DNA from: Myxococcales bacterium
GTDB taxonomy: Bacteria; Myxococcota_A; UBA9042
DNA length: 17,444 nt
Reading direction: 5' to 3'
Assembly: GCA_037441385.1 (NCBI GenBank)
Contig: JBBISH010000125.1
Location: 1-17,444, forward strand
Position numbers and translations under genes: made by a program. Shown piece by piece: positions 10,258 to 16,488 of this stretch. How positions within the stretch are numbered: the stretch's first letter is position 1; each line of letters opens with the position of its first letter. The notes beneath the pieces were generated by a model, which ran no database searches, was not told the DNA's origin, and saw only the letters and a list, made by a program, of their open reading frames with translations.

Positions 10258-10630
10258 GTGTCGGGGACCGTGTCCGCGACCGTGTCCGGAACCGCGTCCG
10301 GCGCCGTGTCTGGGGCGATATCCGGAGCCGCATCTGGGGCTGTGTCCGGGGCCGTGTCCGGAACCGCGTCCGGATCCGTATCTGGAACTGTATCCGGAAC
10401 CGTATCCGGGGTCGTGTCTAGTATCGTGTCTGGATCAGGACTTACGTCGGGTCCCGGATCGGGTTCCGGTCCCGGATCCGGTCCAAGATCCAGCTCAGGC
10501 CCAGTGTCGAGGCCCGGCCCAGTGTCGAGGCCCGGCCCAGTGTCCGGACCCGGTTCAGTGTCCAGGCCGGGTCCAATGTCCGGACCCGGTCCAAGATCCA
10601 GGCCCGGCCCAAGATCCAGGCCCGGTCCCG
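10258..10630. repeat. In-frame 12-bp (PDTV/PDAA) and 18-bp (GPGLDT/L) imperfect tandem repeats encoding a Pro/Asp-rich linker
   Basis: CCAGTGTCGAGGCCCGGC occurs twice at 10501-10536; CCAAGATCCAGGCCCGG(C/T) twice at 10591-10626; PDx(V/A) units at ~10258-10435. Confidence 0.9.
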
Positions 10631-10759
10631 TGTCCACCGCATCGAATTGGAGGCCGTCCCACAGCGGCGGCAGATCCGGGCCGTCCCCATCGGGAAGCGC
10701 CTCGCCGTCTGGCCCGACCAATTGGTCCACGGGCTGCGTATCGGGCTGCAGCGGCACGT

Positions 10760-10977
10760 CCGGCTGGCCATCCGCGCCGGTCCCATCCGGGCCGGCCAGA
10801 ACATCGGGGGTCGCCACGTTGCCGGCATCGTAGGGCAAAGGGCCCACCGGGGTCAGGGTCGCGGTGCCGGCTGGCCATCCGCGCCGGTCCCATCCGGGCC
10901 GGCCAGAACATCGGGGGTCGCCACGTTGCCGGCATCGTAGGGCAAAGGGCCCACCGGGGTCAGGGTCGCGGTGCCGG
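10760..10977. repeat. Exact 107-bp tandem duplication bounded by CCGG microhomology
   Basis: 10760-10866 is identical to 10867-10973; CCGG occurs at 10760, 10867 and 10974; flanking bases differ. Confidence 0.97.
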
Positions 10978-11125
10978 TAAGGACGTCTGAGCAGGCCGCC
11001 AGCAGGGCGGCACAGCCGACCGCGGCAAGCAGCAATTTCAGACCTGGGTGACGAACTTGCTTTTGCTGCATGGCCATGTGCGCGGGCTGGGCGCCATGTC
11101 GGAAGAAATGTAAACCGACGCAAAC

Positions 11126-15333: not shown

Positions 15334-15362
15334 AGTGTACCGGCAAATGGGCCAATGCGCTA
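15334..15362 (-). promoter_or_regulatory. Possible sigma-70-type promoter for the ABC-F/queG/aminotransferase genes
   Basis: TAGCGC-N17-TACACT on the minus strand, about 100 nt upstream of ATG 15236. Confidence 0.35.
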
Positions 15363-15947
15363 CGGGTTTTCGCCTGACCCCGCGGCCAGGAATCGGCGAA
15401 TGCTCCGCACGGCGCGCTGCACCGACTCGTCGCTGAGGCCCAAGATGGCGTCGTCGTCAAACTCGCCAAGCGGCAACCAGCGGCAGTCGTTGGCATCGTC
15501 GCCGGCACGCACCGCGATCTTGCGCGATCGGAACAGCAGGCGGACGTCCAGGTGCGCGTGCTCGGGCTGCTCCTTGCGCGCCGGAATCGTGTGGATGTCC
15601 AGATCCAACGGCATGGCCAGCAGCTCCAGGTCGGTCAGGCCAGTCTCCTCGGCGACTTCGCGGCGGGCCGCGCTCTCCAAGTCCGCGTCCGTGGGCTCAA
15701 AATGACCGCCCGGCTGCAGCCAGCGATGCAGTTTGCTGTGGTAGATGAGCAGCAGGCTGCCGCGATCGGGCGACAGGACGAAGGCGCTGGCCGTGAAGTG
15801 ACCCGGATCGAAGTGGTCGCGGTCCAGGGCGCGGCCGCCGCGGTCGAGCAGGGCAATCATCGCCCCCTGATGTGCCTGCTCGTCGCGGGTGCTGGGCGGG
15901 TGGTTCTGGAGCAGGCGGCGCAGGTCGGGGATGCGGGGATCGGTCAT
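15360..15947 (-). CDS. NUDIX hydrolase
   Basis: Nudix box PGGHFEPTDADLESAARREVAEETGL; subfamily motifs GHFTASAFV, H.KL.RWLQPGGH, DLDIHTIP...HAHLDVR. ATG 15947 is preferred because the ORF-track start 16034 lies inside the terminator. Confidence 0.9.
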   Translation of the reverse strand: MTDPRIPDLRRLLQNHPPSTRDEQAHQGAMIALLDRGGRALDRDHFDPGHFTASAFVLSPDRGSLLLIYHSKLHRWLQPGGHFEPTDADLESAARREVAEETGLTDLELLAMPLDLDIHTIPARKEQPEHAHLDVRLLFRSRKIAVRAGDDANDCRWLPLGEFDDDAILGLSDESVQRAVRSIRRFLAAGSGENP

Positions 15948-16025: not shown

Positions 16026-16069
16026 AAAAAGCAACTCGGCGGCCGGACTTTCGTCGCGGCCGCCGGAGT
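16026..16069 (-). terminator. Rho-independent terminator
   Basis: Minus strand: ACTC-CGGCGGCCG-C-GAC-GAAA-GTC-CGGCCGCCG-AGT-TGCTTTTT, a GC-rich stem with GNRA tetraloop and U-tract. Confidence 0.8.
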
Positions 16070-16280
16070 GGTGGGCGAAGGTGGCAAGTGAGGAAGAGGC
16101 GCGTAGATCCAGCCGAAAACCAAGAAGAACTATGGTGTGTCGCGGCTCACTCCCTGACGGTGAGCTTTGGACCGGGTCGGCGGGCCGCTACCTCCTTGGG
16201 TGACACCGAGGCGAACTCGGCGCTGGGAAGGGAGGTTTGGAAAGGAGTTAGGATTCACACAGGGATTCCGTTCGCACCGA
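16026..16280 (-). ncRNA. Candidate sigma-54-dependent small RNA (~255 nt), unknown family
   Basis: Bounded by a consensus -24/-12 promoter and an intrinsic terminator. Contains several hairpins and no ATG-initiated ORF. Start inferred 12 nt after the -12 GC. Confidence 0.6.
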
Positions 16281-16290
16281 ACTGATAGAT

Positions 16291-16307
16291 AGCAAGGGCC
16301 GTGCCAA
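16291..16307 (-). promoter_or_regulatory. Sigma-54 (RpoN) -24/-12 promoter
   Basis: Minus strand TTGGCACGGCCCTTGCT matches YTGGCACG-N4-TTGCW, with GG (16305-16304) and GC (16293-16292) 10 nt apart, in intergenic DNA. Confidence 0.88.
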
Positions 16308-16401
16308 GTTCGATAACATGGCGAAATAATACAGTATATTGTTGTTCTGACGCGATCCACACCCTTGGCGAGGGCCGGCATGCCCAGGGAGGGATGTCGC
16401 T

Positions 16402-16488
16402 ACTGTCTCAAGTTGAGAAACTGCGTCGGTCCGCGTCAATTGACGCGGTGCGTCGAACTGCCCAGTAACTGTCTCAAGTTGAGAAACT
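16402..16488. promoter_or_regulatory. Pair of identical 21-bp palindromic sites (putative upstream activator sequences) flanking an 18-bp perfect palindrome
   Basis: ACTGTCTCAAGTTGAGAAACT at 16402-16422 and 16468-16488 (66-bp period; core TCTCAA-G-TTGAGA). CCGCGTCAATTGACGCGG at 16431-16448. Confidence 0.75.

Follow-up and report, generated by a model that had tools for sequence, protein, structure and literature searches.

Organization of the locus

The DNA analyzed here (the window) is a 17,444-nt stretch from the genome of a Myxococcales bacterium, hereafter G000. On its minus strand, an RNA gene is flanked by the gene of an EGF-repeat protein and a NUDIX gene. The first-pass annotation, made from the sequence alone, had read this region as a sigma-54 transcription unit composed of two identical palindromic sites, an AT-rich tract, a consensus sigma-54 promoter, about 255 nt with no convincing ORF and a strong terminator some 80 nt before the NUDIX ATG. 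All of these elements were recovered at the following positions of the window, along with a third palindrome that the first-pass annotation had missed, as it had the pseudoknot, the second copy on another contig and the candidate activator described further on:

16468-16488, minus strand: distal enhancer site, a 21-bp repeat containing a 17-bp palindrome of the TGTCTCA-N3-TGAGACA type (16470-16486, centre at about -198)
16447-16432, strand not assigned: perfect 16-bp palindrome between the two enhancer sites, retained in the two closest relatives only
16402-16422, minus strand: proximal enhancer site, a 21-bp repeat identical to the distal one (palindrome 16404-16420, centre at about -132)
16346-16324, minus strand: AT-rich tract, likely a DNA-bending (IHF-type) site
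16307-16291, minus strand: sigma-54 (-24/-12) promoter, consensus TTGGCACG-N4-TTGCT
16280-16026, minus strand: non-coding RNA of about 255 nt, its start inferred from the promoter and its end from the terminator U-run
16068-16026, minus strand: intrinsic terminator, a GC-rich hairpin with a bulge (16065-16037, -26.2 kcal/mol) followed by a U-rich tail
15360-15947, minus strand: NUDIX gene, downstream neighbour of the RNA gene and outside the unit

The core pattern of the palindrome occurs twice in the window, against 0.01 matches expected, and none of 200 shuffled sequences reached two matches. The sigma-54 consensus was found once, and it was absent from all 200 shuffles. Based on the position of the -12 C at 16292, we placed the TSS near 16280, which gives an RNA of 255 nt. 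A spacer of 79 nt separates the end of the U-run (16026) from the NUDIX ATG (15947). The hairpin was missing from the output of a simple terminator scan, which found no terminator in the window, probably due to the bulge in the stem. A separate promoter candidate that had been suggested for NUDIX, TTGCTT-N18-TAGAAC, is present in the sequence; nevertheless, it was not listed by the promoter scan and stays unsupported.

Two additional features of the window lie far from the RNA gene. A second gene for a sigma-54 activator (receiver, AAA+ and helix-turn-helix domains) is located at 1151-2617; it has no high-scoring palindrome and is probably unrelated to the RNA. At 10442-11077, a direct repeat of about 100 bases surrounds the start of the gene for a long Dictyostelium-repeat protein, with the same peptide stretch in two ORFs, possibly a tandem duplication or an assembly slip.

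Distribution of the RNA

Rfam 15 gave no match over the RNA at E ≤10 in the window, nor at E ≤5 in seven homologous loci, in keeping with the first-pass annotation, which could not assign the RNA to a known family. No tmRNA, RNase P RNA or tRNA was found in the window; the tmRNA and RNase P RNA of the genome are located elsewhere. A literature search, with most subscription journals outside its coverage, returned no description of such an RNA and only Pxr-related work.

BLAST matched the stretch in 11 of 40 relatives. Using a pattern that combined the promoter and the RNA core, we identified 33 loci in 185,579 species genomes, 29 of which are clear homologues; the other four were excluded by eye as chance matches. 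The homologues are mostly in assemblies labelled as uncultured Myxococcales, Myxococcota or Deltaproteobacteria, with a few under other labels. Three records titled Enterobacteriaceae (L031, L045 and L049) carry typical copies and myxobacterial neighbours, and their titles are probably wrong. Metagenome contigs contained 15 pattern matches, and phage contigs none to one exact pattern of the RNA.

With a covariance model built from 32 sequences, the RNA was detected in 35 of the 37 genomes of one uncultured Myxococcota family, including all 24 high-quality ones, as two copies in 26 genomes and one copy in nine, with lengths of 231-275 nt. The second copy of G000 (contig C85:25800-26036, minus strand) sits between a lipid-kinase-like gene and a ClpA/B-like gene and has its own sigma-54 promoter and two enhancer sites. 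The six genomes of genus g9 all have a single copy of the RNA together with the best-scoring 6S RNAs of the family. Outside the family, no full-length match was obtained, and short weak matches appeared in only 2 of 70 other genomes of the class and 2 of 139 genomes of a phylum sample; these outgroups are samples, and a covariance model with few pairs may miss remote relatives.

The Pxr model (RF01812) had no matches in G000 at E ≤1. It also failed to match in 151 + 5 further genomes, positive control included, so its wider absence is uninformative. A primer-based pxr pattern gave a single chance match, inside a gene, among 401 genomes. Since the Pxr control never matched, cultured Myxococcus relatives are probably not among the genomes searched.

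Fold of the RNA

The RNA of the window folds better than its shuffled versions (z -2.8; 2 of 200 shuffles as good). Constrained folding of the copies, leaving out those at contig ends (L129 and L118) here and in the conservation counts, led to a single architecture. In it, the closing stem P1 is followed by a G-poor strand of about 35 nt, the hairpin P3 and a long irregular stem, P4, which ends in a junction with P5 and a small hairpin. The remainder of the molecule consists of another pyrimidine-rich strand and the terminator. The main elements are the following:

16271-16275, minus strand: 5' strand of the closing stem P1, pairing with 16079-16075; all 5 pairs show two-sided changes, and 88% of cells pair
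16260-16265, minus strand: 5' strand of the pseudoknot, whose partner, 16156-16151, lies in the P5 loop; paired in 100% of cells, with covariation in 4 of 6 pairs
16224-16259, minus strand: G-poor single strand with repeated UCC(U) motifs
16203-16223, minus strand: hairpin P3, variable in sequence
16145-16165, minus strand: hairpin P5 at the end of P4, with an invariant CA../GUG core and the pseudoknot loop; 97.7% of cells paired, outer pairs covary
16080-16100, minus strand: second pyrimidine-rich single strand

P1 with at least 5 pairs and P4 with at least 12 bp were obtained in 58 of 60 constrained folds. The 6-bp pseudoknot can pair in all 60 full-length copies, in which it exists as five variants: UCCCUA/UAGGGA (37 copies), UCCCUG/CAGGGA (11), UUCCCA/UGGGAA (9), UCUCUA/UAGAGA (2) and UUCCUA/UAGGAA (1).

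Covariation among homologues, which the first-pass annotation had proposed as a check, is present in the pseudoknot, the closing stem, the P5 hairpin and the terminator, where 7 of 8 hairpin pairs change on both sides. Across an alignment of 62 rows, 94.9% of cells are paired and 18 of 24 pairs change on both sides, a result matched by none of 500 shuffles and well above the 43-48% of slid controls; this alignment was fitted to a model that includes P1, P3, P5 and the terminator, and its counts are biased toward these elements, the pseudoknot being outside the model. A MAFFT alignment with no model fitting gave the same picture, with 90.7% of cells paired. These statistics ignore kinship among the copies, and the tested pairs exclude P4. 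On the MAFFT alignment, RNAalifold recovered P5 and the terminator and nothing else. Near-invariant bases in the RNA number only about 15.

Transcription and status as a separate gene

Nineteen RNA runs from 12 studies contain a small share of the window. Four metatranscriptomes, from four studies, were examined, and each has a contig with 95-97% identity that lies, wholly or with the exception of two bases, within 16074-16271; none reaches the promoter or NUDIX. In the smallest of these runs, the RNA contig is the only record that matches the stretch. Assembled from close relatives, these contigs offer a weak hint of a discrete transcript, of the kind that the first-pass annotation had suggested looking for in metatranscriptomes. 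The missing contig cover over the NUDIX and EGF genes was not counted as silence, since the selection of runs required part of the stretch to be present and the flanks diverge faster.

The initial proposal of a stand-alone non-coding RNA is supported by a promoter, enhancers, fold and terminator conserved throughout the family, by downstream genes that vary and are often convergent, by the lack of a conserved ORF and by RNA-library contigs confined to the RNA. The gene unit, the fold and the shared DNA site rest on comparison between genomes. We therefore regard the locus as almost certainly a real, uncatalogued stand-alone RNA gene, and we infer a regulatory role for its product.

Promoter, enhancer sites and candidate activator

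Among the 59 copies with enough upstream DNA, the sigma-54 promoter is strict in 55 and has one-base variants of the -24 box in four. A palindrome with at most four mismatches lies upstream of 54 of these copies, as against 0.8% in shuffled sequences, and 33 copies have two sites. Within the genus, the two sites are spaced 66, 56 or 45-46 bp apart, that is, in steps of about one helical turn; in other genera, the spacing is 39-50 bp. A match to the IHF consensus with at most one mismatch was found between enhancer and promoter in 14 of 59 homologues (3.0 expected), and the tract of the window itself matches with two mismatches. G000 has an intact rpoN.

In a genome-wide search with a matrix of the palindrome, the best hit (C1:4892) was located just upstream of a gene for an NtrC-type activator, C1:5063-6568; it was followed by the sites of both RNA genes and by one on C18, and the distal enhancer site of the window ranked among the first three. 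Altogether, 22 hits were obtained in the genome, and a sigma-54 promoter is nearby only at the sites of the RNA genes. The C18 site (C18:50832) is a strong fifth palindrome in an AT-rich intergenic region; neither a sigma-54 promoter nor a predicted gene start is close to it.

The activator gene is an orphan, divergent from rlmN, on a contig other than those of the RNA genes. Its product has the receiver, AAA+ and helix-turn-helix architecture, with the Asp motif of the receiver, the Walker A motif and GAFTGA present. Orthologues exist in 21 of the 24 family genomes searched, and 19 of 22 orthologue loci have the palindrome upstream, where on visual inspection it often directly follows a -10-like box, whereas coding controls have 5-8 mismatches to it. 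The protein scores 362 bits with the LuxO model, whose cut-off is 800, and no named cultured orthologue was found among its best 120 homologues. Judged from these sites and domains, the product of C1:5063-6568 is probably the activator of both RNA genes. We infer that it also represses its own gene. Its predicted sigma-54 regulon in G000 would consist of the two RNA genes only, and a dedicated signalling switch appears to have the RNA as its main output.

Among 372 genomes sampled from outside the family, 14 also have the palindrome and sigma-54 arrangement (reversed control, 0), mostly before protein genes, which indicates that related activators have other regulons. In another family, locus L148 (G179:C4, about 24650-25100, minus strand) has a similar palindrome and sigma-54 promoter followed by two tandem hairpins with long C-rich loops and a terminator; it matches neither the covariance model of the RNA nor Pxr and constitutes a separate candidate sRNA.

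Comparison with known systems

The RNA genes display features of sRNA circuits driven by sigma-54 and an enhancer, namely, a conserved -24/-12 promoter, paired upstream enhancer sites and an intrinsic terminator. The features tested place the RNA outside Pxr, Qrr, CrcZ, CsrB and 6S; it is a new RNA family with a new fold within a known kind of circuit.

CrcZ and CrcY titrate Hfq-Crc by means of A-rich motifs. In the CbrB-CrcZ/CrcY system of Pseudomonas, sigma-54 and an NtrC-type activator drive two or three paralogous RNAs (PMC8657755), an arrangement similar to the paralogous RNAs described here, with their sigma-54 promoters and candidate NtrC-type activator. Unlike CrcZ and CrcY, the open strands of the present RNA are C/U-rich, and Hfq was not found in G000.

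In the LuxO-Qrr system of Vibrio, an NtrC-type activator and sigma-54 drive several paralogous sRNA genes, and the activator represses its own gene (PMC2632942). The circuit predicted here has the same components, paralogous RNA genes under an NtrC-type activator and sigma-54, and a putative self-repression of the activator. Nevertheless, the Qrr RNAs depend on Hfq and have a conserved seed in common, while the present RNA has no conserved seed and its 91%-complete genome yielded no Hfq; it is also about 250 nt long and pseudoknotted, and no pairing to the leader of its activator was found in 21 genomes.

Pxr of Myxococcus (RF01812) has a sigma-54 promoter, an upstream enhancer, an NtrC-type activator and, in some species, paralogues; it is 108 nt long, folds into three stem-loops and is located directly downstream of pxrK-pxrR (PMC5684412, PMC5568312, PMC11928866). 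Both RNAs are myxobacterial and have a sigma-54 promoter with an upstream enhancer, an NtrC-type activator (a candidate in our case) and paralogues. In contrast to Pxr, the RNA of the window is 255 nt long, pseudoknotted and far from the candidate activator gene, which is on another contig.

LhrC1-5 of Listeria, like the UCCC sRNAs of the RsaE/RNAIII type, are multi-copy RNAs under two-component control whose redundant CU-rich motifs pair with Shine-Dalgarno regions without Hfq (PMC4132741). The present RNA resembles them in its repeated unpaired CU-rich motifs, its presence in more than one copy and its predicted two-component control, and LhrC is the best model for how it may act. LhrC is, however, a Gram-positive RNA of 111-114 nt with no sequence or fold relation to ours and no shared Rfam match, and it is not known to have a pseudoknot. 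MXnc1, a candidate sRNA of M. xanthus, is intergenic and, independently of Hfq, makes contact with many mRNAs close to the Shine-Dalgarno sequence (10.1101/2025.09.11.675593, a TRIC-seq preprint). The likeness is by description only: both are intergenic and myxobacterial, with Shine-Dalgarno contacts reported for MXnc1 and proposed for our RNA. Pxr and MXnc1 of M. xanthus offer a precedent for a pairing mode of action (10.1101/2025.09.11.675593).

Proposed mode of action

We propose that the RNA is the trans-acting, two-paralogue output of a two-component pathway and acts through pairing with Shine-Dalgarno sequences. A kinase would phosphorylate the NtrC-type activator, which would then bind the paired palindromes and open the sigma-54 promoters of both RNA genes, and which would repress its own gene through the single palindrome at its own promoter. 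The frame of the RNA, formed by the closing stem, the long stem, the pseudoknot and the terminator hairpin, would hold both G-poor strands open, and the UCC(U) motifs repeated in these strands would pair in trans with Shine-Dalgarno sequences (GGA/AGGA) of several mRNAs, reducing the translation of those mRNAs with no need for Hfq. We estimate the probability of the whole proposal at roughly 0.45; its last step, pairing in the manner of LhrC, likewise has slightly less than an even chance.

The composition of the RNA is consistent with the proposed pairing. The open strands contain 6-11% G and repeated UCC, and unpaired regions as a whole contain 9% G. UCCU is present in 36 of 40 representatives, compared with 19.9 in shuffles; the full anti-Shine-Dalgarno CCUCC is not enriched (17 of 40 versus 14.7), and no conserved seed longer than UCC(U) was found across the copies. 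Shine-Dalgarno sequences are in use in this genome (1558 of 4613 predicted genes at -18 to -4, versus 350 in a control window), and the tail of its 16S rRNA reads ACCUCCUUU, a run reproduced by several copies of the RNA. The linkers complement ribosome-binding windows better than shuffles do in 24-29 of 40 representatives; with control windows, the corresponding figure is 9-14 of 40. This bias is small (median ratio 1.04-1.14) and obtained from relatives that are not independent.

Other results do not favour pairing. In a genome-wide duplex scan of the linkers against 4544 start regions, predicted by a home-made gene caller, the energies of three of the four linkers were no better than those of shuffles or coding controls, and no convincing top target emerged. 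Pairing of the RNA with the leader of the activator itself was not detected in the 21 genomes compared (mean z +0.24; 7 of 21 below zero). A tertiary element is usually dispensable for base-pairing sRNAs; here, such an element is the most conserved part, which counts against the pairing reading. A broader version of the proposal, in which the pseudoknot-braced RNA with two strands resembling the 16S tail would be a broad Shine-Dalgarno sponge that needs no chaperone, or a switchable decoy under the control of the pseudoknot, and the sole sigma-54 output of one pathway, is improbable.

The strongest competitor, somewhat less probable than the pairing proposal, retains the gene and the circuit and makes the RNA a protein decoy like CrcZ/CrcY or GlmY, whose frame and UCC motifs would titrate an RNA-binding protein. 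A length of about 250 nt, two copies, a short repeated motif instead of a seed, an invariant tertiary core and the lack of specific predicted targets would all suit a decoy, and decoys driven by sigma-54 have precedents (CbrB-CrcZ, PMC8657755; GlmY, PMC7073468). The genome contains a RapZ-like gene and one RRM gene; nevertheless, the usual partners, CsrA, Hfq and ProQ, were not found in G000, an assembly 91% complete in which absence is not proven. Additionally, the AGGGA sequence of the loop is variable and buried within the pseudoknot, no partner gene consistently accompanies the RNA among 61 loci, and a decoy does not predict the small bias toward ribosome-binding windows. The specific case of a CsrA sponge of the CsrB/RsmZ type was rejected, given the 9% G of unpaired regions, a sole loop GGA that is variable and paired in the pseudoknot, and the failure to find CsrA.

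It is also conceivable, with a low probability, that the fold itself is the active part, that is, that the RNA is an uncatalogued ribozyme-like, ligand-binding or template-like molecule whose pseudoknot core would carry out chemistry or act as a switch. A perfect pseudoknot and invariant flanking bases in copies that otherwise share little would be expected of such a molecule. On the other hand, the near-invariant bases are too few to speak for it, there is no expression platform or constant downstream gene, and no Rfam ribozyme or riboswitch matched, even at E 10.

Coding potential and genomic context

A short mRNA or dual-function RNA, encoding either the GTG-16258 ORF or a small peptide that starts where the pseudoknot strand ends, is very unlikely. 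An ATG is present at this strand end in 37 of 60 copies, and the GTG-16258 ORF still spans 42 codons in the closest relative. Nevertheless, 20 of 60 copies have no start codon at that position, the window has a start directly followed by a stop, and the ORFs that begin there vary in length between 1 and 75 codons and use all three frames. Close relatives differ by 29 non-synonymous and 6 synonymous codon changes, and the GTG-16258 ORF, in which a conserved coding signature would have counted against the first-pass reading, is frameshifted in the second-closest relative.

The alternative entertained in the first-pass annotation, an attenuated leader for NUDIX or other downstream genes, is rejected as still less plausible than a coding role. 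In 61 loci, counted with the exclusion of L133 (no core motifs) and L103 (a duplicate), NUDIX directly follows on the same strand in ten and a ClpA/B-like gene follows in 20. NUDIX is, however, inverted in one locus and lies 600-700 nt away behind an opposite-strand ORF in five, and many other copies face convergent ORFs. The upstream genes vary as well, those identified including PPDK, a lipid kinase and an EGF protein. Since the downstream genes vary and are often convergent, the RNA is not a NUDIX leader; moreover, the terminator covaries, no conserved antiterminator was seen among the copies, and the RNA-library contigs stop short of NUDIX.

The least probable reading, a highly changed or replacement 6S RNA, drew on the Rfam 6S model, which matches 60 of 70 genomes in other families of the class versus 11 of 36 here, G000 not among them, and is refuted, as far as a replacement is concerned, by the genome's own divergent 6S RNA, found with a family-specific profile (C96:14023-14284, minus strand, E 5e-15); furthermore, 6S sequences do not match the profile of our RNA, both RNAs coexist in the same genomes, and the fold of ours is not an extended hairpin. 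The 6S RNA of G000, missed by Rfam, is about 260 nt long, and the zapA-ygfA spacer of this genome is only about 70 nt.

Implications

Very few regulatory RNAs have been characterized in this phylum, in which the usual RNA chaperones are missing according to our searches. To these we add a structured RNA family that is well supported and comes with a promoter, an enhancer and a probable activator. Its host range is narrow and uncultured, and the target scans gave nothing specific. The fold, a covarying long-range pseudoknot that frames two open strands, is amenable to in vitro probing. A pathway whose only predicted sigma-54 outputs are two RNAs, maintained family-wide, suggests a switch at the level of lifestyle, as with Qrr or Pxr. 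If the sponge reading were true, the RNA would be a global translation damper made of RNA in bacteria without Hfq, CsrA and ProQ.
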